A stretch of DNA of 64,000 nt. Source: Flavobacterium sp. (lineage in GTDB: Bacteria > Bacteroidota > Bacteroidia > Flavobacteriales > Flavobacteriaceae). The translations under genes and the position numbers were made by a program. Under the pieces are notes generated by a model that saw only the letters and a list, made by a program, of their open reading frames with translations, was not told the DNA's origin and made no database searches. Below are positions 1-24,229 of this stretch, one piece after another. Location: assembly GCA_044378345.1 (NCBI GenBank), contig JBILXS010000010.1, positions 29,670-93,669 on the forward strand. The letters are read 5' to 3'. The first letter of the stretch is position 1; each line of letters begins with the position of its first letter.

Positions 1-968
1 TCAGCATCGAAAGGTTTGTAAACGTAATATCCAACCTGCGCCTCCAAAGAAATCCTATTGATAAATAATTCATGCCCAATGAATACGCCAATTCTTTTGA
101 AATCTGTATTTTCAATACCCTTATCCTCCGGATAGGCAACAGAGCGATATTTTATGTACTCTTTTATAGAATTAGTCACAAATAATTCTGTTCCTAATTG
201 CAAAGCACTTTTTCTGCTTAGTCGTTTGTCTGCATAGACGCCGATATGGTAAAAAGGCTTTTGTCCGCTTCCGATAACGATATTTTCATTTAAGCCTGAG
301 CGAAGTACCAAATTAAACTTGATTGGTTCTTTGTATTTGTAGCTTACTGCAATTGTGTCGATTATTTTTGGTTGTTTTTTGCTAAGATTATAATTGACAC
401 CGAGATTGATGCCATAAGTATTTAATCCGCTATTCGGTGATTTAAATCGGCCACTCGAATAATGTGTAAAGAATAATCCGGCTTCTATGCCAAGTCGATC
501 AAAAAGATACTCTTGTTTAAAGTTTAAAACAAAATTGGTGTTGCCCATATACTTCGATCCGAACGCCCTATTTTTACTATTATTTATTTTATCGTAAGGA
601 TTGGTTGTCATGGCGATTCCTTGCCCAATTTTAAACTGCAACTTCCTGTTGAGGAAATAGAAGTTGTAGTGTCCGCCGATAGCGTAATTTTTTCCAAGAA
701 TTTCATTTTTAAAGTCTTGATAAATAAAATACCCGCCATAGTCTGGGTAATTATACAATTTTTGCCAAGCTTCTTTACCGTGTGTTTTCTTGGAAAAGCT
801 TAATATAAACCCTTCGGGGTGCCCTGTAATGAGATGGTATAATTCTGGTGAATGTGGTAAGATAACACCTCTAAATTGGTTGAATTCAATGGCGTCTGTA
901 TCCTCTATTTCTTGCCCGAAAACAACAGAGCACAGCGCAACAAAAAGAAAAGAAAATACTTTTTTCAT
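1..968 (-). CDS. Acyloxyacyl hydrolase / PagL-like lipid A deacylase family outer-membrane protein (3' end runs off window)
   Basis: Not in the ORF track. Manual translation from ATG at 968 gives MKKVFSFLFVALCSVVFGQ...HPEG...YNYPDYG...HYSSGRFKSPNSGLN...GYYVYKPFDA, with a signal peptide and PagL-like H-x-S motif; no stop found in the stretches translated, including the window edge. Confidence 0.75.
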   Translation of the reverse strand, partial: MKKVFSFLFVALCSVVFGQEIEDTDAIEFNQFRGVILPHSPELYHLITGHPEGFILSFSKKTHGKEAWQKLYNYPDYGGYFIYQDFKNEILGKNYAIGGHYNFYFLNRKLQFKIGQGIAMTTNPYDKINNSKNRAFGSKYMGNTNFVLNFKQEYLFDRLGIEAGLFFTHYSSGRFKSPNSGLNTYGINLGVNYNLSKKQPKIIDTIAVSYKYKEPIKFNLVLRSGLNENIVIGSGQKPFYHIGVYADKRLSRKSALQLGTELFVTNSIKEYIKYRSVAYPEDKGIENTDFKRIGVFIGHELFINRISLEAQVGYYVYKPFDA

Positions 969-1000
969 CGAACAACTATTGGGCAAATATATTCCTTTTA

Positions 1001-1957
1001 TTAGAAAATCGTTTTTGCAATCGATTTAATATTTTCAGCTTTCCCCATGGAATAGTAATGTAATACAGGAATTCCCGCTGCTAACAATTCTTTACTCTGT
1101 TCGATGCACCATTCTATTCCAATTTGCTTTACAGCGTCATTGTCTTTTGCTTTAACGACTGCCATGATGAGATCGTCGGGCAATTCTAAACTAAAGCGAT
1201 GTGGAATTAAATTCAATTGCTTTTTGGTAGCAATAGGTTTTAAACCTGGAATGATTGGCACCGCGATTCCTGCATTTCTGCATTTAGCGACATATTCAAA
1301 AAACTTTTGATTGTCGAAAAACATTTGTGTGATGATATAATCTGCACCATTCTTTATTTTTTGCTTTAAGAAATGAATATCGCTATCCAAACTCGGTGCT
1401 TCCATGTGTTTTTCCGGATAGCCTGCCACACCAATACAAAAGTTAGTATTGGAGGTATTCTGTAAATCTTCATCTAAGTAAATGCCTTTATTCAAATTAC
1501 TGATTTGTAGCACCAAATCGGTTGCATATTCATTCCCGTCTTTTTCTGGCTTGAAATAGGTTTCAGTTTTTAATGCATCACCTCGAAGTGCTACGACATT
1601 ATCGATACCCAAAAAATCCAAATCGATGAGCAAGTTTTCCGTATCCTCTTGAGAAAATCCGCCGCACAAGATATGTGGAATAGCATCGATGGAATACTTA
1701 TTTTGTATTCCTGCACAAATTCCGACAGTTCCCGGTCGCTTTTTTACAATTTTCTTTTGCAACAATCCGCTGGGCAGTTCTTTGTATTCGTACTCTTCTC
1801 GATGATAAGTTACGTCTATAAATGGCGGATCAAATTCCATCAAAGGATCAATACTATCAAAAATAGATTGAATGTTTTGCCCTTTCAACGGCGGTAAAAT
1901 TTCAAATGAAAACAAAGGTTTTCCTTGTGCTTTTTCTATGTGTTGGATAACTTTCAT
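1001..1957 (-). CDS. metF: Methylenetetrahydrofolate reductase
   Basis: FSFEILPP, FIDVTY, ALRGD, GVAGYPEKH and ITQMFFD motifs; downstream of metH. Confidence 0.96.
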   Translation of the reverse strand: MKVIQHIEKAQGKPLFSFEILPPLKGQNIQSIFDSIDPLMEFDPPFIDVTYHREEYEYKELPSGLLQKKIVKKRPGTVGICAGIQNKYSIDAIPHILCGGFSQEDTENLLIDLDFLGIDNVVALRGDALKTETYFKPEKDGNEYATDLVLQISNLNKGIYLDEDLQNTSNTNFCIGVAGYPEKHMEAPSLDSDIHFLKQKIKNGADYIITQMFFDNQKFFEYVAKCRNAGIAVPIIPGLKPIATKKQLNLIPHRFSLELPDDLIMAVVKAKDNDAVKQIGIEWCIEQSKELLAAGIPVLHYYSMGKAENIKSIAKTIF

Positions 1958-1964
1958 AATTTTT

Positions 1965-2037
1965 GTTGTCGGTTGGTTGTCGGTTGTCAGCTTGCGTTGC
2001 GCGTAACCGACAACTGATAACTGATAACCGACAACTG
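1965..2037. repeat. Inverted pair of GACAACC-type heptamer arrays filling the metH-metF spacer (empty cassette)
   Basis: gttgtcggttggttgtcggttgtcag, short spacer, then ccgacaa ctgataa ctgataa ccgacaa ctg. Confidence 0.9.
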
Positions 2038-2040
2038 TTC

Positions 2041-4758
2041 TTAATCTGCTATATTCGGGTTAAGCCATTTTGTAGCTTGTTCTGTACTGATGCTTCTTCG
2101 TTTGGCGTAATCGATGACCTGATCTTCTTTAATTTTTCCGAGACCGAAATATTTGCTCTCTGGATTTCCAAAATAATATCCCGAAACAGAAGACGCGGGC
2201 CACATTGCCATACTTTCTGTGAGTTTTACTCCAATGGCTTCTTCTACCTTCAAGATATTCCATATCGTAGGTTTCTCTAAATGGTCTGGACAAGCCGGAT
2301 ATCCTGGTGCTGGACGAATTCCTTTGTATTCTTCTTCTATTAAATCAACTTTATCTAAATTTTCATCTGTGGCATAACCCCAAATTTCTTTGCGCACTTT
2401 CTCATGTAAATATTCGGCAAATGCTTCCGCCAAACGATCCGCGAGTGCTTTGACCATAATGGAGTTGTAATCATCTAAATTTTTCTCAAATTCCGCTGCC
2501 CATTCGTCGACCCCAAAACCAGTTGTGACACAAAAGCATCCCAAATAATCTTGCTTTCCGGAATCTTTTGGAGCAACAAAATCAGCCAAAGCCATGTTGA
2601 AAGCGCCCTTCGTTTTTTGAGATTGTTGGCGGAGCGTTAAGAATTTGGTTGTCAGTTGTCGGTTGTCGGTTGTGAATTCTGTGACAACTTCAATGTCATC
2701 ATCGTTAATGGTATTGGCGGGGAAAATGCCATAAATTCCTTTAGCAGTGAATTTGTTTTCTTTCACAATTTGATCGAGCATTTCTTGTGCATCATTAAAT
2801 ACGGCTTTCGCTTGTTCACCTACAACCTCATCGGTCAGAATTGCTGGATATTTTCCGAACAATTCCCAAGTTCTAAAAAAAGGTGTCCAATCGATATAGG
2901 GAATCAACGTTTCAATATCAACATCTATAGTTCTAGACCCAATGAAGTTTGGCTTTTTAGGTGTAAAATTTTCCCAATCTAATTTTAATTTATTGAGTCG
3001 CGCTTGTTCGATGGTCAGGAAATTTTTATCTCGACTTCTGGTCAAATAACCTTCACGCAATTCGTCGTATTCGGATCGTATTGCTTTTGAATACATTAAT
3101 TTATCTGCATTCAATAAATTTCCTGCAACCGTAACAGCGCGCGACGCGTCATTCACATGCACCACAGTTTCTTTATATTCAGGTGCTATTTTCACTGCGG
3201 TATGTGCACGAGAAGTTGTCGCACCGCCAATCATGATTGGTATTTTGATATTAAGCTTATCCATTTCTTTCGCGAGATAAACCATCTCATCCAACGAAGG
3301 TGTAATCAAACCGCTTAAGCCAATAATATCTACGTTTTCTTTGATGGCCATTTCAATAATTCGCTCTGGTTGCACCATTACGCCCAAGTCGATAATTTCG
3401 TAATTGTTGCAACCGAGCACGACAGAAACAATATTTTTTCCAATATCATGAACATCGCCTTTTACGGTAGCCATCAGTATTTTGCCTGCGGAGGAAGATT
3501 TGCCGTCTTTTTGCGCTTCAATGAATGGCAACAAATACGCTACTGCTTTTTTCATGACGCGCGCCGATTTCACCACTTGAGGGAGAAACATTTTTCCTGA
3601 TCCGAATAAATCTCCAACGACGTTCATTCCTTCCATTAAGTTTACTTCTATGACTTCAATTGGGCTAGTAACAGAGAGCCGTGCTTCTTCAATATCAATT
3701 TCTATAAACTCGTCGATGCCTTTTACTAACGAATGTGTTAAACGCTCTTGGATTGATCCGGAACGCCATTCTTGAACCGCCTTTTCACTACTTTTAGTGT
3801 TACCTTTTATATTTTCAGCGAAATCGAGTAAGCGTTCGGTAGCATCTTCCCGTCTGTTGAGTAGAACATCTTCGACAAATTCCAGTAAATCTTTTGGAAT
3901 TTCATCATATACTTCAAGCATTTCGGGGTTAACAATTCCCATTGTCATTCCGTTTTTAATGGCGTGATACAAGAAAACCGAATGCATTGCTTCACGTACT
4001 TTATCATTTCCTCTAAAGGAAAAGGAGACATTGCTAACGCCGCCACTTACATGTGCATAAGGCAGATTTTCCTTAATCCATTTGGTGGCTCGGAAGAAAT
4101 CGAGTGCGTTTAATTTATGTTCGTCCATTCCAGTGGCGACAGGAAAAATGTTTGGATCGAAGATGATGTCTTCTGCTGCAAAACCAACTTCATCAACCAA
4201 AATATCATAAGAACGTTTGCAAATTTCTATACGTCTTTCGTAATTGTCTGCTTGTCCTTGTTCGTCGAAAGCCATTACGATCACAGCAGCGCCATATCGT
4301 TTGACCAATTTCGCATGGTGAATAAAAAGAGCTTCGCCTTCCTTTAGTGAAATAGAATTGACGACGCATTTTCCCTGAACTACTTTCAATCCGGCCTCGA
4401 TAATTTCCCACTTCGAGCTATCAATCATGACTGGAACTCGCGAAATGTCTGGTTCGGCCGCGATTAGATTCAAAAAAGTTGTCATGGCATGAACCCCATC
4501 GAGCATGCCTTCATCCATATTGACGTCGATGATTTGTGCACCGCCTTCTACTTGATCACGTGCCACAGAAAGCGCTTCATCATACCGTTCTTCTTTGATT
4601 AAACGAAGGAATTTACGAGAGCCCGTGACATTTGTTCTTTCACCAACATTGACAAAATTGGTTTCTGGAGTTACGATTAACGGTTCGAGACCTGAAAGCC
4701 GGAGATACTTCGTTGTCGGTTGTCGGTTGTCGGTTGTCGGCGTGACATCTTTAATCAT
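2041..4758 (-). CDS. metH: Cobalamin-dependent methionine synthase, pterin-binding, B12-binding and reactivation domains
   Basis: [18 protein letters not shown]12-binding motif, [12 protein letters not shown]; ATG overlaps the end of the four-helix-bundle gene. Confidence 0.97.
2647..2673. repeat. In-frame GACAACC heptamer array inside metH (encodes TTDNRQLTT)
   Basis: ggttgtc agttgtc ggttgtc ggttgt. Confidence 0.9.
4711..4740. repeat. (GTTGTCG)4 array, downstream arm of four-helix-bundle cassette, translated in the MetH N-terminus ([10 protein letters not shown])
   Basis: cgttgtcggttgtcggttgtcggttgtcgg. Confidence 0.95.
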
Positions 4759-5125
4759 TGAGTTTTCTGTAATAATTAATGAATCCGTTTAATATTCGTT
4801 TACATCGCTGCACGGTTTCAAATAGTGATTCGAAAATTTCTTTGGTAATATAATTTTGATCAAGTGCGATGAAAATTTGTGTTTCAACTTCATACAATGC
4901 ACCACGAGCAATATGTAGAAAATGTAAAGTATCCTTACTAGTACTTCGTCCGCAACCCTCGGCAATATTGGAAGGTATAGAAACAGCCGAACGTCTGATT
5001 TGATTTGTCAAACCGTAAAGTTCTTCTTTTGGAAAATTCCTCGAAACCTCATAAACATGATTCGTTAGCTTCCTGCATTCCTGCCAGACTTCCAAATCAG
5101 TGTACTCTTTTTTATTATCTTTCAT
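4751..5125 (-). CDS. Four helix bundle protein (TIGR02436 / 23S rRNA IVS protein family)
   Basis: [35 protein letters not shown] and [15 protein letters not shown] match the family pattern. Confidence 0.93.
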
Positions 5126-5142
5126 ATTTTGTTATAAAAAAA

Positions 5143-5205
5143 CTGACAACCGACAACCGACAACCGACAACCGACAACCATCAACCATCAACGAACAACC
5201 ATCAA
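5143..5205. repeat. Nine-unit heptamer array (CCGACAA/CCATCAA), upstream arm of four-helix-bundle cassette; overlaps the stop of metH N-terminal gene
   Basis: ctgacaa (ccgacaa)4 ccatcaa ccatcaa cgaacaa ccatcaa. Confidence 0.95.
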
Positions 5206-6189
5206 CTTCCTAGGCTTAAATTCTGAAGCAACTTCAGCAATCAATTTGATATGTTCTGGCGTTGTTCCGCAGCAGCCACCAATGATGTTAACTAGATTTT
5301 CCTTTAGATATTCTCGTATCAATTCCTGCATTTCTTGAGGCGTTTGGTCGTATTGTCCAAAAGCATTTGGCAATCCGGCGTTAGGATGTGCGGAAATATT
5401 TAAAGAGGTATTTCTAGCCAATCTTTTGAGGTACGGCTTTAGTTGATCTGCGCCTAAAGCACAATTGAAACCGACGCTTAACAAAGGAATATGGGAAATT
5501 GAAATGAGAAATGCTTCCACTGTTTGACCAGAAAGTGTTCGTCCAGAAGCATCTGTAATCGTTCCTGAAACCATAATGGGAATATCAATATTCCGTTCTT
5601 CTTTGACTTCTTCAATCGCAAACAAAGCTGCTTTGGCATTGAGTGTATCGAAAATAGTCTCCACCAGAAGCAGGTCGCAACCACCGTCGATTAACGCTTC
5701 TGCTTGTTGTTTGTAAGCGATTCTCAAATCATCGAAAGTAACAGCTCTAAAACCGGGATCATTGACATCGGGGCTCATGCTTGCAGTTCGGTTAGTTGGT
5801 CCAATAGAACCGGCAACGAAGCGGGGTTTGTTTGGATTTTTAGCGGTGAACTCATCGGCTACTTCACGGGCAATTTTGGCTGATTGGTAATTCAGTTCGT
5901 AAACTAGATTTTCTAGATGATAATCTGCTATTCCAATAGTGGTGCTAGAAAAGGTATTCGTTTCTATGATATCAGCACCTGCTTCGAAGTACTGCGCATG
6001 GACATCTCTTATGGCTTGTGGTTGCGTGATTGAAAGTAAATCGTTATTTCCTTTTAGAGAATGGGGAAAATCTTTAAATCGTTCGCCTCTGAAATCGGTT
6101 TCAGAGAAATTGTATCGTTGCAACATGGTTCCCATGGCGCCATCTAGGACGAGGATTCTATTTTGAATTTCTTGTTGAATTGTTGACAT
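5188..6189 (-). CDS. metH: Methionine synthase homocysteine-binding (Hcy S-methyltransferase) domain, separate polypeptide
   Basis: [23 protein letters not shown] and GGCCGT Zn ligands; start moved to ATG 6189 (MSTIQQEI). Confidence 0.95.
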
Positions 6190-6200
6190 GTTTTTTTGCT

Positions 6201-6223
6201 CGCAAAGGCGCCAAGACGCCAAG
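6201..6223. repeat. Short octamer tandem (cgcaaagg cgccaaga cgccaag) just upstream of the metH' start
   Basis: Three degenerate 8-nt units seen directly. Confidence 0.5.
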
Positions 6224-6242
6224 TGTTGTTATGAAATTGATT

Positions 6243-6340
6243 GCCCTAGCCCCGATAGCAGCAGTTATCCTTTTGTGCTGTAGTTCAGCGCAAAAGATAG
6301 TAGCGGATAGCGGGATTAGCTACTGAAATAAATTCAGCAT
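6243..6340 (+). repeat. Palindromic intergenic element, family A (REP/Flavo-1-like)
   Basis: gccctagccccgatagcagcagttatcc-[ttttgtgctg..cagcgcaaaa hairpin]-gatagtagcggatagcgggattagcta, followed by ctgaaataaattcagcat. Confidence 0.8.
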
Positions 6341-6390
6341 AAATCCTAAAAAATAAAATGTCATCAAAAAGTGCGAGGGAAATTCTCGTG

Positions 6391-6492
6391 GTTATCTGTC
6401 CAAGTTTTCGCTTGGTAGAATGTAGCACCTTCTTTAAGTTAAAGGGTTGCTAAGCTTTCAACGGGTCTAATCCCTCTGGCTTTCGTGATAAC
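6391..6492 (-). promoter_or_regulatory. SAM-I riboswitch aptamer
   Basis: Minus strand reads GTTATC..GAAAG..GAGGGA.TAGACCC..TGAA..AGCAACC...AAGGTGCTA...GATAAC; P1 GTTATC/GATAAC; upstream of metH operon. Confidence 0.9.
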
Positions 6493-6682
6493 AATCAATA
6501 AATTTAAGAACAGAGCAAAGTAATGCAATAGAAGTGGTTTTTGCAACCACTTTTAAAAAAAAATGCGATAACGTTATAGTGAGCGAGACTGCTTTGCAGT
6601 GAGAAGAAAGAAGCAAGACCGCTGCGCTGCAAGAAAAAACTCTAGGGTTTTCTCAGAGCGCTGCGGTCTTCTCTTTAGAATT

Positions 6683-7561
6683 CTATTGCTTTATGATTTT
6701 TGTAGAACCTGTTCCTTGATTGGTCATTATTTTTAAAAAGTAAATCCCCGAATTTAGATTTCCAATATTTATTTGACTGGTCATCCCTTTGATTTCTTTT
6801 ATTGTACGACCGTTTACATCTGTAACTTGAATTGATTCAATTTTAATTTCCGAATTAGCGTCAATATTAACTATGTTGGTCGCTGGATTTGGCCAAAGCG
6901 CAAAATTGCTTTTAAAAAATGTCGCTGATGATAATTGTGGTCTATTGATTGTGAGCGCGTCAATCCAAATTGCGTTTCCGTTTGTACCCGTTGGACCGCC
7001 GTTGGTCACAAAGTAGCGAAATGCTAATTTGCAATCTGTTGCTGTAGGTAAACCGGAGACTGTATATAAAACTTCTGTCCACGCAACAGGGTAAATATTG
7101 GCAGAGAGATTGGGATTAACTGTCGCGGCGATTGTTGCAAAACTACCGATATCTGAGCTACCAGTTGATGGAATTACAGAGGCATCACCTGCTGTACTGA
7201 GTCGCAATTCTAGTCGATCAGGAATCGAGCTAAAATTACTTCCTGCTCTAGTGTAAAACTTGATTACATCGCCATCTTGCAGGCTAATGGTCGGCGTGAT
7301 TAACCAGTTACTAATGGTTCCTGAAGATCCTGCCGCCACACTGTTAAAATTTACGGAGACATAGGAAGTTGAACCTCCATTAAACCCTGTTCCGAAACCA
7401 CTAACATTTCCTTGTTGCCAATTGGAGGTTCCGACAGGTTGGCTTTGATTTGTTTTTGTCCATGTGGCTGGGAAAACATCAAAGTTCTCCGCAAAAATCG
7501 TTTGAGCTTGCAGGCCGCAAAGACCTACTAAAAGAACAACACCAAGTACATAATTTTTCAT
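6683..7561 (-). CDS. T9SS type A cargo with choice-of-anchor J / cleaved-adhesin-like domain
   Basis: Signal peptide, SNWLITP and LELRLST motifs, C-terminal WPNPAT...G.YFLKI...KIIKQ CTD; start moved to ATG 7561. Confidence 0.82.
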   Translation of the reverse strand: MKNYVLGVVLLVGLCGLQAQTIFAENFDVFPATWTKTNQSQPVGTSNWQQGNVSGFGTGFNGGSTSYVSVNFNSVAAGSSGTISNWLITPTISLQDGDVIKFYTRAGSNFSSIPDRLELRLSTAGDASVIPSTGSSDIGSFATIAATVNPNLSANIYPVAWTEVLYTVSGLPTATDCKLAFRYFVTNGGPTGTNGNAIWIDALTINRPQLSSATFFKSNFALWPNPATNIVNIDANSEIKIESIQVTDVNGRTIKEIKGMTSQINIGNLNSGIYFLKIMTNQGTGSTKIIKQ

Positions 7562-7593
7562 TAGAAGAAGTTTTAAGCATTTCACAAATATTC

Positions 7594-7625
7594 AAAAAAA
7601 AACCTGATTCTTTTCAGAATCAGGT
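7594..7625 (-). terminator. Intrinsic terminator between the two T9SS paralogs
   Basis: acctgattc/gaatcaggt stem followed by a T run on the minus strand. Confidence 0.7.
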
Positions 7626-7646
7626 CTTCTTTTTATTGTAAAAAAA

Positions 7647-8573
7647 TTAATTTTTGATAATTTTCGTTGTTCCAGTTCCTTGAGTACTTGATATTTTCAA
7701 GAAATAAACACCAGCGTTCAACTCGCTAACATTGATTTGGTTAGTCATTCCCTTTACTTCTTTTACGATACGACCATTGATATCTGTAATTTGAATACCA
7801 TTTACATCGATATTAGAAGCGTTAGCAATGTTTAAAACATCGCTAGCAGGATTTGGCGACACTGTAAAGTTACTTCTAAAGAAAGTATCTGTTGCCAAAA
7901 ATGGACGATCAACTGAAACAGAGTCTAAACCAATAATGTCTGAATTTGCTCCGACTGGTCCTCCTTCTGTAACATAATATCTGAATCCTAACTTAATTGC
8001 TGTAGGACCCGTTAGGCCTGTCATAGTATAAGAATATTGAGCCCAAGCTAAAGGATAAGAAACAAGATCTAAATCAGGATTAACTTCCACAGCTAAAGTT
8101 GTAAAATCACCTAAATCAGCTGCTCCAGTTGCAGGTAAGGTCGAAAAACCACCATTAGTGCTAATTCTTAATTCTAAGTTATCAGCATAAAGTGCAGCTG
8201 CATTTCTTCCAATTCTTGTGTAGAAAGTAATAACATCTCCATTTTCAACAGTTACCACAGGACTGATTAACCAATTACTTATTGTTCCTACACCTGCTGT
8301 TGCAGAAGTTCCAGTACTTGTATAGTTAATTAATGCGAATGAAAACGCTGCACCAGCTTGAGCACCACCTGCAAAGGTTGTTGTTGGAGCAGTTGTAGGA
8401 ATTCCCCAAATTGGAGCTCCAGCATAAGTTGGTGAGCTTTGATTGGTTCCAAACCAGCCATCTGTTGTATACATAGTTGCTGTTGGGTTATCAAACCCAT
8501 ATGTAAGTAAATTTTGAGCTTGTGTTGAAGCAAACATCAACACTAATGTAAGGGAAAGTAATAGTTTTTTCAT
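7647..8573 (-). CDS. T9SS type A cargo with choice-of-anchor J domain (paralog of 6683..7561)
   Basis: Signal peptide, SNWLISP, LELRIST, RYYVTEGGP.G.N, CTD VSPNPAS...GVYFLKI...KIIKN. Confidence 0.85.
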   Translation of the reverse strand: MKKLLLSLTLVLMFASTQAQNLLTYGFDNPTATMYTTDGWFGTNQSSPTYAGAPIWGIPTTAPTTTFAGGAQAGAAFSFALINYTSTGTSATAGVGTISNWLISPVVTVENGDVITFYTRIGRNAAALYADNLELRISTNGGFSTLPATGAADLGDFTTLAVEVNPDLDLVSYPLAWAQYSYTMTGLTGPTAIKLGFRYYVTEGGPVGANSDIIGLDSVSVDRPFLATDTFFRSNFTVSPNPASDVLNIANASNIDVNGIQITDINGRIVKEVKGMTNQINVSELNAGVYFLKISSTQGTGTTKIIKN

Positions 8574-8657
8574 AATAAAAAATTTTAAATAGTTTAGAAG
8601 CCAAAAGTAATAATAAAAACGACAACAAAAAACTTTTTCTAATCAAAATTGGTTTCA

Positions 8658-8665
8658 TACCTTTG
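8658..8665 (+). promoter_or_regulatory. Bacteroidetes -7 promoter box for metK
   Basis: TACCTTTG matches TAnnTTTG. Confidence 0.6.
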
Positions 8666-8688
8666 CATTCGAAAATAACGAGGAAAAA

Positions 8689-8747
8689 TTTGTACTGATT
8701 GCAACCTCTGACCTTAACCAATTAAGTGTCAAAAAAAATGCTAAAGC
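8689..8747 (+). promoter_or_regulatory. Candidate SAM-II-type riboswitch in metK leader
   Basis: ttgtacTGATTgcaac...gtgtcaaaaaaAAATGCTAAAgc resembles the SAM-II UGAUU...AAAUG-CUAAA core; located in the metK 5' leader. Confidence 0.5.
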
Positions 8748-8816
8748 AGAACTTCTCTCTTTTAGTTTGGTTGCGTTCGCCTATTATTTCCCATTAACAA
8801 TTAAAATTAAAGTATT

Positions 8817-10067
8817 ATGGCTTATTTATTTACGTCGGAATCAGTGAGTGAAGGACATCCAGACAAAGTAGCAGATCAAATTTCGGATGCATTAATTGAC
8901 AACTTTATGGCGTTCGATCCAAAATCGAAAGTGGCCTGTGAAACTTTGGTTACTACTGGCCAAGTAATTTTGGCGGGCGAAGTAAAATCAGACACCTATT
9001 TAGATGTTCAAAATATCGCAAGAGAGGTTATCAGAAAGATTGGCTACACGAAAAGCGAATATATGTTTGAAGCTGATTCTTGTGGTGTTCTTTCAGCTAT
9101 TCATGAGCAATCCTCAGACATCAATCAAGGTGTTGAAAGAGCCAACCCTGAAGAGCAAGGTGCAGGTGATCAGGGAATGATGTTCGGCTATGCAACAAAT
9201 GAAACGCAAAACTTTATGCCATTGGCGTTAGACCTCTCCCATGCCCTTTTGATTGAATTGGCGAATTTGAGAAGAGAAAATAATGAAATTACCTATTTAC
9301 GTCCAGATGCAAAATCGCAGGTGACACTAGAATACTCTGACGACAACAAGCCAGTGCGTATTGATGCTATTGTGATTTCTACGCAACATGATGATTTTGA
9401 TGAGGAAACGAAAATGTTGGCTAAAATTAATAGCGATTTAGTTTCGATATTGATTCCAAGAGTAAAAACAAAATATCCGGAATACGCGCATTTGTTTAAT
9501 GATAAAATACAATACCACATCAATCCAACCGGTAAATTTGTAATTGGTGGACCTCATGGCGATACTGGATTAACAGGAAGAAAAATCATTGTGGATACTT
9601 ATGGTGGAAAAGGGGCTCACGGTGGTGGCGCATTTTCTGGGAAAGACCCAAGTAAAGTAGATAGAAGTGCTGCTTATGCTACGCGTCACATTGCAAAGAA
9701 CTTAGTAGCTGCAGGTGTTGCCGATGAAATATTAGTACAGGTTTCCTATGCCATTGGCGTAGCCCAGCCGATGGGAATTTTTGTAGATACTTATGGAACT
9801 GCGAAGGTAAATATGACTAATGGTGAGATTGCGAAAAAAGTAGAAGCGATTTTTGATATGCGCCCTTATTTTATAGAGCAAAGATTAAAATTGAGAAATC
9901 CTATTTACAGCGAAACCGCAGCTTACGGACATATGGGAAGAACCCCCGAAACGGTTACAAAAAGTTTTAAAGCGCCAGGTGGTGCAGAAAAAACAATAAC
10001 TGTAGAATTGTTTACTTGGGAAAAATTAGACTACGTAGACAAAGTGAAAGCGGCGTTTGGTATTTAA
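8817..10067 (+). CDS. metK: S-adenosylmethionine synthetase
   Basis: [28 protein letters not shown]. Confidence 0.98.
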
Positions 10068-10108
10068 CCTTTAGTAAAAAATACAGCGCCAAAGAGTGCA
10101 AATTAAAT

Positions 10109-10139
10109 CCCTGACTACATTTGAAGTCAGGGTTTTTTT
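10109..10139 (+). terminator. Intrinsic terminator after metK
   Basis: ccctgact/agtcaggg stem plus T7. Confidence 0.8.
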
Positions 10140-10222
10140 AGACCCAAAGGCAGCGGCATCCTTTTAATGCTGAACTCGTTTGCGCATAAAAAAATAGAGC
10201 GAACCTCGGAGCCTGAGCTCTC
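10138..10222 (+). repeat. Palindromic intergenic element, family A (degenerate)
   Basis: tagacccaaaggcagcggcatcc-[ttttaatgctgaactcgtttgcgcataaaaa]-aatagagcgaacc. Confidence 0.65.
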
Positions 10223-10319
10223 TAAAGAGAAAATCGACGAAGCAAATAGTTCCATCAAACTATAGAAAAGAATTGACACATCCGTTTGATTCGAGAGCGA
10301 ATAATTGTAAATTCGCTTT

Positions 10320-11099
10320 ATGAAAAAAATTTCATATCTATTTTTGTTGCTATTCTTAACCCCTGCGTTTGCGCAAAAACCGCAATTGATAGGTAAAACG
10401 GAACTTATAGCAGATTCCTTCTGGGGTTATGATGCTCTAGGTGCGTTTTATTCTGTAACCAACAATGTCTTGACCAAACAAATGGGAGAACAAAAGTGGC
10501 AGTACAAGAACCCGCAATTGGGTAAAATTGCTAAAATAGACTTGCAAAATCCCTTGAAAATTGTCTTGTTTTATCAAAATTTCAATACTGTAATTATAGT
10601 TGATAATCAGTTGAATGAGTTATCGAATATCAATCTTAATGATTCTGAAAATCCGATTGTTCCCCTTGCAATTGGACTGGCAGCAGGAAACAGACTTTGG
10701 ATATATAACAATTTGACTCTAAAGATTGGTCTTTATGATTATGCGAAGCGTGAACTGAAAAATCTGACGGTGCCTTTTCCCAATAATGTGCGACATTACG
10801 TTTCTGATTTTAACTTTATTTATTGGGTAGATGAATTGGGCAATAACTATCGATGTGATGTCTATGGTAAAACTACGCTACTGGGATTTATTGAAGCTAG
10901 CGAACAAATTTCTTGGATGTCTGATTCGGTATTGGTATATAAAAAAGGAGGAAGTTTGTACGAATATTGCCTGAAAGATCAAAAAACAACTCTGCTGGAA
11001 ATAGAAGAAAAAACCTTTAAAAATTTTACCATTAAAGACCAAATTTTATCTATTTTTACAGACCACGGAATTACGAATTATAAAATAGCAGTACCATAA
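10320..11099 (+). CDS. Exported hypothetical protein (possible beta-propeller), coupled to the deoxynucleoside kinase gene
   Basis: Signal peptide; stop overlaps next ATG (TAATG). Confidence 0.75.
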   Translation: MKKISYLFLLLFLTPAFAQKPQLIGKTELIADSFWGYDALGAFYSVTNNVLTKQMGEQKWQYKNPQLGKIAKIDLQNPLKIVLFYQNFNTVIIVDNQLNELSNINLNDSENPIVPLAIGLAAGNRLWIYNNLTLKIGLYDYAKRELKNLTVPFPNNVRHYVSDFNFIYWVDELGNNYRCDVYGKTTLLGFIEASEQISWMSDSVLVYKKGGSLYEYCLKDQKTTLLEIEEKTFKNFTIKDQILSIFTDHGITNYKIAVP

Positions 11100-11713
11100 T
11101 GCACATAGCAGTAGCAGGAAATATAGGAGCGGGAAAAACGACACTTACCCGTTTGTTGGCGAAACAATTTAAATGGGAACCTCATTTTGAGGATGTTGTT
11201 GACAATCCCTATCTCGATGATTTTTACCATCAAATGGAACGGTGGTCTTTTAACTTACAGATTTATTTTTTGAATAGCCGTTTTCGTCAAATTTTACAGA
11301 TTCGTGAAAGCGGAAAAAAGATCATTCAAGACAGGACTATTTATGAAGATGCTCACATTTTTGCTCCGAACTTACATGCGATGGGATTAATGACCAATCG
11401 TGACTTCGAAAACTATAGGTCGCTATTTGAGTTAATGGAATCCTTGGTTGAAGCTCCTGACATGTTGATTTACTTACGAAGTTCCATTCCAAATTTAGTT
11501 TCTCAGATTCACAAGCGTGGACGAGAATACGAAAATTCTATTTCTATTGATTATTTGAGTAGGCTGAATGAACGCTACGAGGCTTGGATTCACTCCTACA
11601 ATAAAGGTAAATTACTTGTAATTGACGTTGATAATATTGATTTTGTAAACAACCCTGAAGACTTGGGTATGATTTTAAATAAGATCAATGCAGAACTAAA
11701 CGGACTATTTTAA
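11099..11713 (+). CDS. Deoxynucleoside kinase
   Basis: AGNIGAGKTT P-loop, QDRTIYED. Confidence 0.93.
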   Translation: MHIAVAGNIGAGKTTLTRLLAKQFKWEPHFEDVVDNPYLDDFYHQMERWSFNLQIYFLNSRFRQILQIRESGKKIIQDRTIYEDAHIFAPNLHAMGLMTNRDFENYRSLFELMESLVEAPDMLIYLRSSIPNLVSQIHKRGREYENSISIDYLSRLNERYEAWIHSYNKGKLLVIDVDNIDFVNNPEDLGMILNKINAELNGLF

Positions 11714-11715
11714 AT

Positions 11716-12204
11716 TTACGCCGACTCTAATTTTATTCTAAATCTTTCAATCTGTCGGCGGTGTCTTACCACATCTAGTACAGCATGTTCCATCATTTGT
11801 TCGATGTCGTAAACAACTCCCCAAGGAGTCCTAATTTTTTTCTTCGCATCAAACTCTTCCAGTTCATCGTCTTGGATACTATGAAATGTTTGATCTGTAT
11901 ACGCTATTAAATCAGTCAGATCATTATGGTATTCAATAGCGGACATTTTTGTCATTTTCCCAGGACGATTATCAGTGATTTTTTTTAGCTTTCTAATATA
12001 ACCCGCATAAGAATAACCAGAACTAATTACATCCGTTAAAATGTTTTGAATCGACTGCTGTTTCGCGCCTGTAGTTTCAGTATCTACTAACGTGCTCAAG
12101 CTTTCAAAAGATATGTTTGCAATTACTTTTTGGAAAGCAATTACAACGTTTTTGTATTCGGCAAGCATTGCTTTAACGGCGTATCTATTATTTTCTTGAT
12201 CCAT
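11716..12204 (-). CDS. DinB-superfamily protein
   Basis: WG..YDIEQMMEHA....RHRRQI C-terminal pattern. Confidence 0.7.
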   Translation of the reverse strand: MDQENNRYAVKAMLAEYKNVVIAFQKVIANISFESLSTLVDTETTGAKQQSIQNILTDVISSGYSYAGYIRKLKKITDNRPGKMTKMSAIEYHNDLTDLIAYTDQTFHSIQDDELEEFDAKKKIRTPWGVVYDIEQMMEHAVLDVVRHRRQIERFRIKLESA

Positions 12205-22032: not shown

Positions 22033-22391
22033 ATGAGAAATTTTAAAGAACTTGAAGTCTAGAAAGAAGGTAGAATTCTTTCAAAAAACATCTATCTACT
22101 TACGAAAACGTTACCAGATGATGAGAAATTTGGATTAATCTCACAAATTAAAAGATGTGTAATTTCAATTCCCGCCAATATAGCTGAAGGTGCTGCTAAA
22201 AATTCACAGAAGGATTTTGTTCGGTTTCGTCAAATCAGTTTAGGATCTTGCTTTGAATTAGAAAGGCATCTAATTTTATGCTGGATCTAGAAATAATAAA
22301 TAATTCGGAAACAATAGGAAATCTAGAGAATATTCAACAATTGCAAAAGAAAATTTATTCTTTAATAAAATACGTCAGCACAAAAATCTAA
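22033..22391 (+). pseudogene. Four helix bundle protein pseudogene
   Basis: Manual translation MRNFKELEV*KEG...EKFGLISQIKRCVISIPANIAEG...SLGSCFELE; TAG at 22060 (conserved W expected) and a 1-nt frameshift near 22283; C-terminus DLEII...QKKIYSLIKYVSTKI* in the shifted frame. Confidence 0.88.
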
Positions 22392-23413: not shown

Positions 23414-24229
23414 ATGGAATCTGTAAAAAAATATATACCATCTCATCCGCTTCTTAGACAAAAAATAGCCGCGATTGTTTTTTGGAGGCGATCGGCGGAT
23501 GAAATTACCTCTAGTGTATTTTTACCCAATAATATCTGTGGATTTGGTTTTACTTTGTCGGGAGATTTACTCGTAAAGAATACTTCCGACTTCCAAATAA
23601 TGCCACAATATGGAACTCGAAATACCTTAAATAAACCCAGCGAGATTAAAACTCAAGGCGATTTTTTCAATGTATCTCTTCGACTGGTGATTCCTAATGG
23701 TTTGTCGTTGTTTACGAAAATCCCTATGGATAGAATTTACGAGGAAGATGCCATTTCACTTACCGATATTTTCAAGCCTTTTGAAATAGTACTTCTAGCA
23801 GAAAAACTGGCTGAAGCAAAAACCGATGAGCACCGAGTGGCCTTGCTTGAAAACTTTTTGCTTACCAAAATAAACTGCAGCACTCCTACAGTTTTTGAAT
23901 TCATCATTGAAGCAATTCATCTCGCCAATGGTTTTATTAGCGTTCAACAACTTGCAAAACAGTTTGTCCTTTCTGAACGAACGATTCATCGCTATTTTAA
24001 CAAATATATTGGTGTAAATCCCAACGAATACATTAATCTTATTCGTTTTAGATCGGTCATTACATTAACGCAAAATTCAAGTGAGTCTCTTTTGAATCAT
24101 GCGCTTGATGTTGGATATTATGATCAATCGCATTTTATCAAGCATTTCAAGGAATTTAGTACCGTTACGCCCAAACAGTTTTTTGCAGTAAAAAATTCTA
24201 ATAGTCTGTCCGATTTTTACAATATATGA
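23414..24229 (+). CDS. AraC-family transcriptional regulator
   Basis: C-terminal LSERTIHRYF..YIGV.P and GYYDQSHFIKHFKEF..TP. Confidence 0.9.
   Translation: MESVKKYIPSHPLLRQKIAAIVFWRRSADEITSSVFLPNNICGFGFTLSGDLLVKNTSDFQIMPQYGTRNTLNKPSEIKTQGDFFNVSLRLVIPNGLSLFTKIPMDRIYEEDAISLTDIFKPFEIVLLAEKLAEAKTDEHRVALLENFLLTKINCSTPTVFEFIIEAIHLANGFISVQQLAKQFVLSERTIHRYFNKYIGVNPNEYINLIRFRSVITLTQNSSESLLNHALDVGYYDQSHFIKHFKEFSTVTPKQFFAVKNSNSLSDFYNI

Follow-up and report, generated by a model that had tools for sequence, protein, structure and literature searches.

An intact IVS-protein gene within inverted heptamer arrays at the metH'/metH junction of a Flavobacterium methionine operon

The intervening sequences (IVSs) of 23S rRNA that carry an open reading frame (ORF), as in Coxiella burnetii, Leptospira, Xanthomonas and Brucella, are the closest known system to the element described in this study, and the two have the cargo family PF05635 (S23p, or IVS protein, IVP) in common. 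The Coxiella IVS, in which tandem heptameric repeats precede the S23p ORF, has a 28-bp stem that RNase III cuts in the middle (PMC4990558). Its heptamer, GACAGAT, is present three times, with a copy number that varies between strains; the S23p ORF is decaying and apparently untranslated, and an S23p homologue has been described as a pentamer (PMC4990558). Here, we analyzed a 64,000-nt stretch of Flavobacterium sp. (assembly GCA_044378345.1, contig JBILXS010000010.1, positions 29,670 to 93,669 of the forward strand; hereafter, the window), in which an intact PF05635 gene enclosed by two inverted arrays of 7-nt units lies between metH' and metH, the two genes of a split methionine synthase. To our knowledge, no function has been assigned to the S23p/IVP family in the roughly 30 years since rRNA IVSs were described, and bacterial heptamer arrays are likewise unexplained.

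The element resembles the rRNA IVSs in its terminal inverted repeats, with a helix of about 28–29 bp around an ORF, in its size (467 nt from one outer end of the perfect stem to the other, versus 428–444 nt; PMC4990558) and in the heptameric repeats of its 5' part, whose number is variable (nine here and 12 in the nearest relative). It differs from them in its location between metH' and metH in a protein-coding operon instead of in an rRNA helix, in arms that overlap two host ORFs, the upstream one at its stop and the downstream one within its first 16 codons, and in that excision by RNase III would destroy the downstream cistron. Unlike that of the Coxiella IVS, its cargo is intact and under purifying selection.

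Other repeat systems are less similar. The TAACTGA heptamer repeats of Beggiatoaceae, Cyanobacteria and Bacteroidetes are direct repeats for which S1/Csp-type binders were proposed, and they were not linked to PF05635 (PMC4679880). Their 7-nt units are likewise arranged in short arrays, which lie immediately before start codons or extend across the ends of ORFs (PMC4679880), and a solo hairpin at 1965–2035 of the window contains CAGTTAT units, the complement of TAACTGA in a different register. In contrast, the arrays described here occur in complementary pairs, often around an IVP gene. The short tandemly repeated repetitive (STRR) sequences of cyanobacteria are likewise tandem heptamer repeats of bacterial genomes. 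Repetitive extragenic palindromes and bacterial interspersed mosaic elements (REP/BIME) and miniature inverted-repeat transposable elements (MITEs) are comparable in that they, too, are intergenic hairpins that abound at operon junctions and occur more often without a gene than with one. Unlike in those groups, the arms here are periodic arrays with a locus-specific unit, not one conserved palindrome; there is no REP-associated tyrosine transposase (RAYT) or other transposase, and the gene-bearing form encodes a four-helix-bundle protein. With regard to a transposon or MITE, the arm units differ among the 11 copies in the genome, no duplication flanks the arms and no transposase adjoins them; a factor acting in trans is possible. 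The Avd proteins of diversity-generating retroelements belong to a distantly related four-helix-bundle fold family, and the cargo scored 26.5 bits against PF22296 (bAvd), below the cut-off of 40. Neither a reverse transcriptase nor a template/variable repeat pair was present among the neighbors metH', metH and metF, and the repeats here are inverted arrays, unlike the direct template/variable pair of retroelements. Full-text literature searches retrieved the work on rRNA IVSs and the TAACTGA repeat paper, and none on IVP cassettes in operons or on translated arms.

Anatomy of the cassette

On the minus strand, the coding end of metH' is followed by nine 7-nt units, 15 nt, the 375-nt cargo ORF, 10 nt, four complementary units and the rest of metH (Table 1). 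The original prediction, made from the sequence without database searches, had described nine upstream and four complementary downstream heptamers that could form a stem of about 28–30 bp around an intact four-helix-bundle gene. The stem is confirmed as a perfect inverted repeat (4712–4740 and 5150–5178) of 29 nt with 100% complementarity, whose halves are 409 nt apart and which can be extended to 32 nt at 88%. The enclosed protein matches PF05635 with an E value of 1e-40 (138.7 bits; cut-off 33.8) over positions 2–106 of the 106 profile positions, and its residues 6–118 match PDB 2gsc (XCC0516, 5 chains; E 1.7e-21), the pentameric state being that of this homologue. Tandem Repeats Finder assigned a period of 7 to both arrays. 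The 5' array (5141–5206) comprises 9.4 units in total, with a core run (5141–5179) at 96% matches, and the 3' array (4712–4740) comprises 4.1 units at 100% matches. The two-unit 14-mer GACAACCGACAACC, with at most one mismatch, occurs 11 times in the window and 0 times in 100 shuffles. When positions 4690–5230 of the minus strand were folded as RNA, a check proposed with the original prediction, the arrays paired with each other (minimum free energy (MFE) −149.8 kcal/mol, z −4.57), and 0 of 100 shuffles folded as well. Neither the 5' nor the 3' arm forms a structure when folded alone.

Both arms are part of the flanking genes. As the original prediction had stated, the 5' array supplies the last codons and the stop of metH', whose C-terminus reads ...KPRKLMVVR and whose TGA (5188–5190) lies inside the third unit of the array; TGA triplets are found in the outer units of this arm. 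The likely start of metH' is the ATG at 6189. The 3' array had been described as the N-terminus of MetH, with an ATG overlapping the cargo stop, and this also held: the ATG at 4756–4758 overlaps the cargo TAA by 8 nt and is the sole possible MetH start. The cargo protein is under purifying selection, as judged from its ratios of nonsynonymous to synonymous divergence (dN/dS) of 0.05–0.25 against orthologues. An Rfam scan of positions 1–12000 of the window gave no family covering the arms and no rRNA match, and no target-site duplication flanks them.

The cassette lineage in the genus, the genome and the phylum

The comparison within the genus used one genome per species; the genomes are related and the counts are not independent. 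metH' was found in 54 of 61 Flavobacterium genomes, as a short frame of approximately 300–375 aa, in line with a split gene, in all but a few fragmentary cases, with a fused frame of 1248–1298 aa in four divergent genomes. The metH'/metH gap varies from 35 to 1161 nt, and an IVP cassette occupies this junction in four of the 50 species examined, namely the source genome (G000), G019, G035 and G058. Junctions without the cassette are of a minimal overlap type or contain other hairpin repeats, small ORFs, a GNAT gene or ORFs of about 140 aa. The presence of the cassette is thus not universal among relatives, and the termini of the host genes differ with it, in agreement with the proposal that the cassette has rewritten them. 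G060, a cassette-less sister of the carrier G019, has a native junction of 44 nt with the termini ...PRQILEKI* and MPESDCKKNLRL, whereas in G019 the termini run into the arrays (...PRRVDGCQLSVDGSKIAY* and MSIDKTNNQQPTTNNYLK). In G024, the sister of the carrier G035, MetH begins with MSTTNNFLK, which corresponds to two leftover CAACAAC units and is read as the scar of a cassette loss.

The four carriers are scattered on the MetH' tree, in which supported branches force at least three changes, and synonymous divergence (dS) is saturated (0.66–4.3 for metH' and >0.85 for the cargo). Together with the remnant in G024, this indicates that the cassette is old and has been lost repeatedly from the junction. 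The original prediction had called the gene inserted, which is not supported in the sense of a recent event: recent insertion in this species is contradicted by the saturated dS of both host gene and cargo and by the occupation of the same junction in many genera. Three other Flavobacterium species have an IVP cassette of the same clade at the metH/metF junction. The seven IVPs of met operons form one clade (support 100/99), in which the metH/metF copies are nested inside the metH'/metH copies. To detect arms, one flank was aligned locally, without gaps or nearly so, to the reverse complement of the other; this replaced RNAduplex on 200-nt flanks, which was too permissive (control mean −53.8 kcal/mol; 1 of 37 cassettes beat the control minimum). 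The arms exceeded the 99th percentile of 500 random controls at 30 of 37 loci in the genus, and the units pair within each cassette in its own form, such as GTTGTCG:CGACAAC in G000 and GTTGATA/G:CATCAAC in G058.

The source genome (2.68 Mb in 23 contigs) contains 11 PF05635 genes, each placed between two complementary arrays of short units, one upstream and one downstream. Three of them had been predicted from array pairs 380–410 nt apart before the hidden Markov model list was drawn up. The unit differs at each of the 11 loci (GGTTCTAAG, GACTGTAAG, AAGAAAC, TAATTAA and others), and the paralogues, each with its own unit, are 30–45% identical. All 11 genes lie between two ORFs of the same strand and in the same orientation as both, and these neighbors are operon partners. 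By Pfam, the flanking pairs include PanB/pseudouridine synthase, guanylate kinase/NadD-like, PaaB/PaaC, mevalonate-PP decarboxylase/next gene and PRiA4_ORF3/NA37; pairs named by eye are RND adaptor/pump, thiolase/acyl-CoA dehydrogenase, NuoM/NuoN and enoyl-CoA hydratase/hydroxyacyl-CoA dehydrogenase. This distribution (11/11 at co-oriented operon junctions) fits the suggestion of a benign operon parasite.

A search for related loci across the phylum retrieved 80 loci of this IVP clade at 51–90% identity, of which 73 were analyzable; they come from Flavobacteriaceae, Cytophagales, Sphingobacteriales, Ignavibacteria and others. The arms exceeded the 95th percentile of controls at 64 of the 73 loci, and a period of 7 was found in 57 of 58 well-scoring cases, with units of a single family (GTTGNNG / CNNCAAC). 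The cassettes occupy metH'/metH (36 loci), metH/metF (18) and other junctions of subunit genes (19), including TrpE/TrpG in Chryseobacterium and Kaistella, two dihydropyrimidine-dehydrogenase-like subunits in Ignavibacteria and MiaB/sigma-54 regulator in Hymenobacter. Since the same repeat family is found at all junction classes, the gene and its arms move together, and the repeat family is a property of the cassette and not of the host site. The lineage has moved between junctions, from metH'/metH to metH/metF and to other subunit pairs. The arms covary: each arm pairs better with its own partner (34.1) than with the arms of other cassettes (25.2), as is the case at 60 of 73 loci (p 2e-10, a value that overstates independence, since the loci are related); complementarity is thus maintained within each cassette. 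Period-7 arrays also flank two cyanobacterial plasmid copies (about 45% identity) on either side, and in one of these copies the arrays are complementary. The cargo protein had no match in 50,697 phage records, and the plasmid copies are <60% identical. Flavobacteriia-type metH cassettes were also retrieved from contigs labeled as Bifidobacterium breve, Klebsiella pneumoniae and Agrobacterium metagenome-assembled genomes (L121, with 90% IVP identity to the window, L144 and L180); these are probably mis-binned contigs.

In 32 of the 36 metH'/metH loci (Flavobacteriaceae), the sole in-frame ATG, GTG or TTG before the conserved YLKLSGLE of MetH lies upstream of the 3' arm, so the 3' arm must be translated. 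Translational coupling, which the original prediction expected to be kept, is further indicated by the position of the MetH ATG within −8 to +5 nt of the cargo stop in all four carrier Flavobacterium species. The predicted arm-coded leader reads, for example, SINHQPSTIN in relatives, and arm-coded leaders are likewise predicted for TrpG (MTDISNPTTNNQQPTTRVLVFDNYD) and others. All MetH ORFs seen at cassette loci are in frame. Of the two arms, the 3' one is the more homogeneous (32 versus 15, p 0.001), and 89 of 204 arm mismatches fall on A residues of the 5' arm. Stop triplets on the sense strand amount to 0.089 per nt in the 5' arm and 0.037 per nt in the 3' arm (2.4-fold), and 24 of 58 3' arms are free of stops in all frames versus 2 of 58 5' arms. 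The nearest relative (L121) has 12 units in its 5' arm, compared with nine here, and four units in its in-frame 3' arm, as here; the four closest loci all have four 3' units and an identical 10-residue peptide. From these patterns, we read the element as adapted to sit between coupled cistrons. The 5' arm would end whatever frame enters it, here that of metH'; the 3' arm would be readable in any frame as an N-terminal leader of the downstream protein, and the stop of the cargo would be coupled to the next start codon. One arm would thus serve as a conserved leader peptide on an enzyme of an essential pathway across a bacterial family.

Possible roles of the arms and modes of spread

We consider, with a probability of about one half, that the cassette is an IVS-type element, in which a selected PF05635 gene sits in the loop of a stem formed by two inverted heptamer arrays, and that it is a long-term resident of the met operon, translationally integrated and mostly selfish, whose stem is formed and cut only on transcripts not covered by ribosomes. 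The element would be carried without polarity, threaded into the translation chain of the operon. By analogy with the rRNA IVSs, we infer that arm pairing is important chiefly at the transcript level: where ribosomes leave the mRNA uncovered, the helix would form and RNase III would cut it. A perfect 29-bp helix is a standard RNase III substrate, and the RNase III gene is present in the genome. Because the only MetH start lies upstream of the 3' arm, a mid-stem cut is predicted to remove the MetH start codon, and the anatomy therefore speaks against simple excision, which bears on the mRNA processing switch that the original prediction had named as an alternative to the operon parasite. Cutting would then amount to a translation-sensitive off-switch or a decay route, and the net benefit to the host is probably small, leaving the element mostly selfish or neutral.

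Several observations weigh against this interpretation. In at least 32 of 36 lineages, a cut in mid-stem would deprive MetH of its start, a consequence difficult to reconcile with efficient processing. Of the 50 Flavobacterium species, at least 42 lack the cassette at metH'/metH and have other fillers there (four more junctions were not fully recovered), so that it is dispensable for MetH. On the sense RNA, stem mismatches are A·C more often than G·U (44 versus 25 and 83 versus 37 in two locus sets), the opposite of the G·U excess expected under selection at the RNA level, and the solo hairpins of metH/metF spacers fold better as antisense in 15 of 19 cases; these two results give no sign of pairing selected at the level of sense RNA rather than DNA. 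Most of the A·C excess comes from A residues in the 5' arm, where they give rise to stop triplets, and these triplets explain the excess of A at least in part; the mismatch pattern is therefore compatible with pairing at either the RNA or the DNA level.

The same mismatch data would suit a cassette that is mobile at the DNA level, with arrays extruding as single-strand hairpins or cruciforms and serving as a substrate for insertion, excision or copying. The driver would be the pentameric cargo protein or host recombination and replication functions, and the solo hairpins would be gene-less, MITE-like derivatives. Besides the lack of enrichment of wobble pairs on the sense RNA, the scattered presence on the host tree (at least three changes on supported branches), the two-unit scar in G024, the spread of the lineage across two junctions of a single operon and into operons unrelated to it, with its repeat family retained, the at least 34 periodic solo hairpins in the genome (among 74 hairpins versus 7 after shuffling) and the in-frame GACAACC arrays inside EPSP synthase, a GSCFA protein and the MetH loop all point in this direction. 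However, no transposase, recombinase or reverse transcriptase lies beside any copy examined, no target-site duplication was seen, the protein has no match in the 50,697 phage records and the plasmid copies are <60% identical. The paralogues, at 30–45% identity and with their own units, argue against a recent burst of copying, and orthologous positions are stable across the genus. We regard mobility of this kind as a possible explanation, though a rather less probable one than the IVS-type element. The copies could instead be maintained for the host as a regulatory module, in which the cargo pentamer binds the arrays in mRNA or DNA, with approximately one 7-nt unit per subunit, and tunes the coupling or stability of the flanking cistrons, here the MetH'/MetH ratio. 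The strong purifying selection on the cargo, the location of both start codons directly beside the arms and the arrays of 4–9 units next to a homologue of a homopentamer (2gsc, 5 chains; PMC4990558) are consistent with such binding, as is the association of one IVP clade with one unit family across loci and bacterial orders, while other clades have other units with periods of 7–9. This association may, however, reflect common descent alone, because gene and arms are physically linked; moreover, most relatives lack the cassette, and Coxiella S23p is apparently not translated (PMC4990558). A regulatory role for the host therefore seems doubtful to us.

Two further accounts have far less in their favor. 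If the element were a phase-variation switch, a slip of one heptamer within the translated 3' arm would shift the MetH frame (7 = 1 mod 3) and turn the large subunit on or off. The 3' arm does lie inside the ORF, and the number of units varies among close relatives in the untranslated 5' arm and among Coxiella strains in the IVS heptamer (PMC4990558), but the 3' arm has just four units, is constant at four in the four closest loci and leaves all MetH ORFs of cassette loci in frame, which makes such a switch very improbable. A chance microsatellite or an assembly artefact without biological meaning draws on nothing but the general instability of short repeats; given a 14-mer count that no shuffle reached and an architecture shared by all 11 paralogues and seen again in >60 independent assemblies, we attach practically no weight to it. 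A broader and quite speculative proposal, which we think unlikely as a whole, is that PF05635 cassettes constitute a phylum-wide class of operon-junction elements with "ribosome-ready" arms (stop codons within the 5' arm, a 3' arm that is open, and a period of 7 nt, so that the frame can be reset when a unit is gained or lost), that the pentameric cargo recognizes its own heptamer arrays, and that the fission of metH in Flavobacteriaceae could have resulted from a cassette inserting into the linker between the domains of a fused metH. If true, it would provide a function for both the S23p/IVP family and the unexplained heptamer repeats of bacteria. The locus in any case presents, in a directly testable form, an IVS-type element in a protein-coding operon with an intact, selected cargo and covarying arms. 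It also shows how a small element can reside between translationally coupled cistrons, or at the domain boundary of a split gene, without polar damage, which bears on operon evolution and gene fission.

The met operon and repeat arrays elsewhere in the genome

The features of the operon are listed in Table 1. The split of the cobalamin-dependent methionine synthase places PF02574 on one gene and PF00809, PF02607, PF02310 and PF02965 on the next. An operon metH'-IVP-metH-metF under the control of the S-adenosylmethionine (SAM) riboswitch is plausible. A promoter and terminator scan of positions 900–6700 found no excess over shuffles (17 versus 14.1 and 4 versus 5.5 sites, respectively), with a scanner that is not tuned to Bacteroidota promoters.

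Table 1 Features of the met operon and the IVP cassette (window coordinates)
Feature	Position	Strand	Evidence or content
SAM-I riboswitch aptamer, upstream of metH'	6389..6494	−	Rfam RF00162, 74.4 bits (gathering score 44.4), E 2.6e-16
metH', homocysteine S-methyltransferase domain	5188..6222	−	PF02574, E 1.3e-100
5' arm	5141..5206	−	Nine 7-nt units: GTTGATG, GTTGTTC, GTTGATG x2, GTTGTCG x4, GTTGTCA; Tandem Repeats Finder period 7
Stem segment of 5' arm, perfect pairing with 3' arm	5150..5178	−	29 nt, 100% complementary; paired in MFE and centroid folds
Cargo gene	4751..5125	−	124 aa, 375 nt including stop; 23S rRNA-IVS protein family, four-helix bundle
3' arm	4712..4740	−	Four CCGACAA units, translated as MetH codons 7–16
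metH, large gene	2041..4758	−	Pterin-binding PF00809, PF02607, B12-binding PF02310, activation PF02965
Single in-frame GACAACC array, loop of MetH activation domain (TTDNRQLTT)	2647..2674	−	Repeat searches
Solo ("empty") hairpin of the cassette's own heptamer family, metH/metF spacer	1965..2035	−	−32.5 kcal/mol, z −5.8
metF-like last operon gene	1001..1957	−	ORF list; named by eye

The metH'/metH and metH/metF junctions of relatives hold other sequences as well. In one subclade (L007, L010, L013, L022 and L080), the metH'/metH junction contains a conserved ORF of about 45 aa (MKN..I.F....QSQRCWVCQYVS.SK.FWK.VAKHYKRISNEL), and the ORFs of about 140 aa found in other subclades have an N-terminal hydrophobic stretch; neither type has a Pfam match. 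The metH/metF spacers of relatives (L087–L114) nearly always contain a solo periodic hairpin with a species-specific unit (AGTCATAA, GTTTAAA, GTTTCAA, GTTGATA and others). Each unit of the GTTTAAA-type hairpins has a conserved mismatch that is A·C on the sense strand and G·U on the antisense strand. The metH/metF cassettes have a complete small hairpin on either side of the gene. In that of G025 (L062), the outer 5'-arm units GATG, GATG, TTTG and GATA recur complemented in the outer 3' arm in the same order, not in the mirror order that a hairpin needs and that G029 shows.

One loop of the MetH activation domain stands out as a hot spot of insertion (window 2647–2674; loci L086–L118). In relatives, it consists of array-coded peptides in one clade and of native DIELTDENGKPLQTFL in another. 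G050 has an in-frame insert of about 420 nt at this loop, which encodes a DUF559 endonuclease-like domain (E 1.1e-35) surrounded by GC-rich inverted repeats, and in G024 just the repeat ends remain. GACAACC arrays also occur in frame twice inside the EPSP synthase gene (C10:23403–23437 and 23644–23685 of the source genome, approximately 6 kb before the window) and once inside a GSCFA-family gene (C11:91907–91934). In both of these genes, GACAACC is always on the sense strand.

Gene-less periodic hairpins are common in the source genome: 74 hairpins with arms of at least 20 nt were found, compared with seven in the shuffled genome, and 34 have a period of 7–9. TAATTAA-type and GGATTTA-type units are shared between solo arrays and IVP arms, and the abundant GTTGTAA family is without an IVP in this genome. 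The expectation that the solo arrays of each genome match the unit of one of its IVPs holds partly, the GTTGTAA family being the exception. A second PF05635 copy in the window, a pseudogene with an internal TAG, lies at 22045–22287 (+), with eroded AAGGT/ACCTT-type arms, between a DUF151/UVR-like ORF and thyA.

A full-length match to Flavo-1 RNA (RF01705, 67.7 bits; gathering score 42) was found at 6244–6321 (+), on the strand opposite to the operon, in the interval that separates the SAM-I aptamer from the metH' start, and a weaker match lies at 10136–10216, after metK. GC-rich "AGCCCG..." pieces similar to Flavo-1 are present in the metH junctions of several relatives, so that Flavo-1 may represent a repeated element of intergenic regions instead of an independent small RNA. 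A SAM-II riboswitch (RF01726, 56.2 bits) is located at 8674–8754 (+), upstream of a metK-like ORF (8817–10067), so two different classes of SAM riboswitch are found within 2.5 kb.

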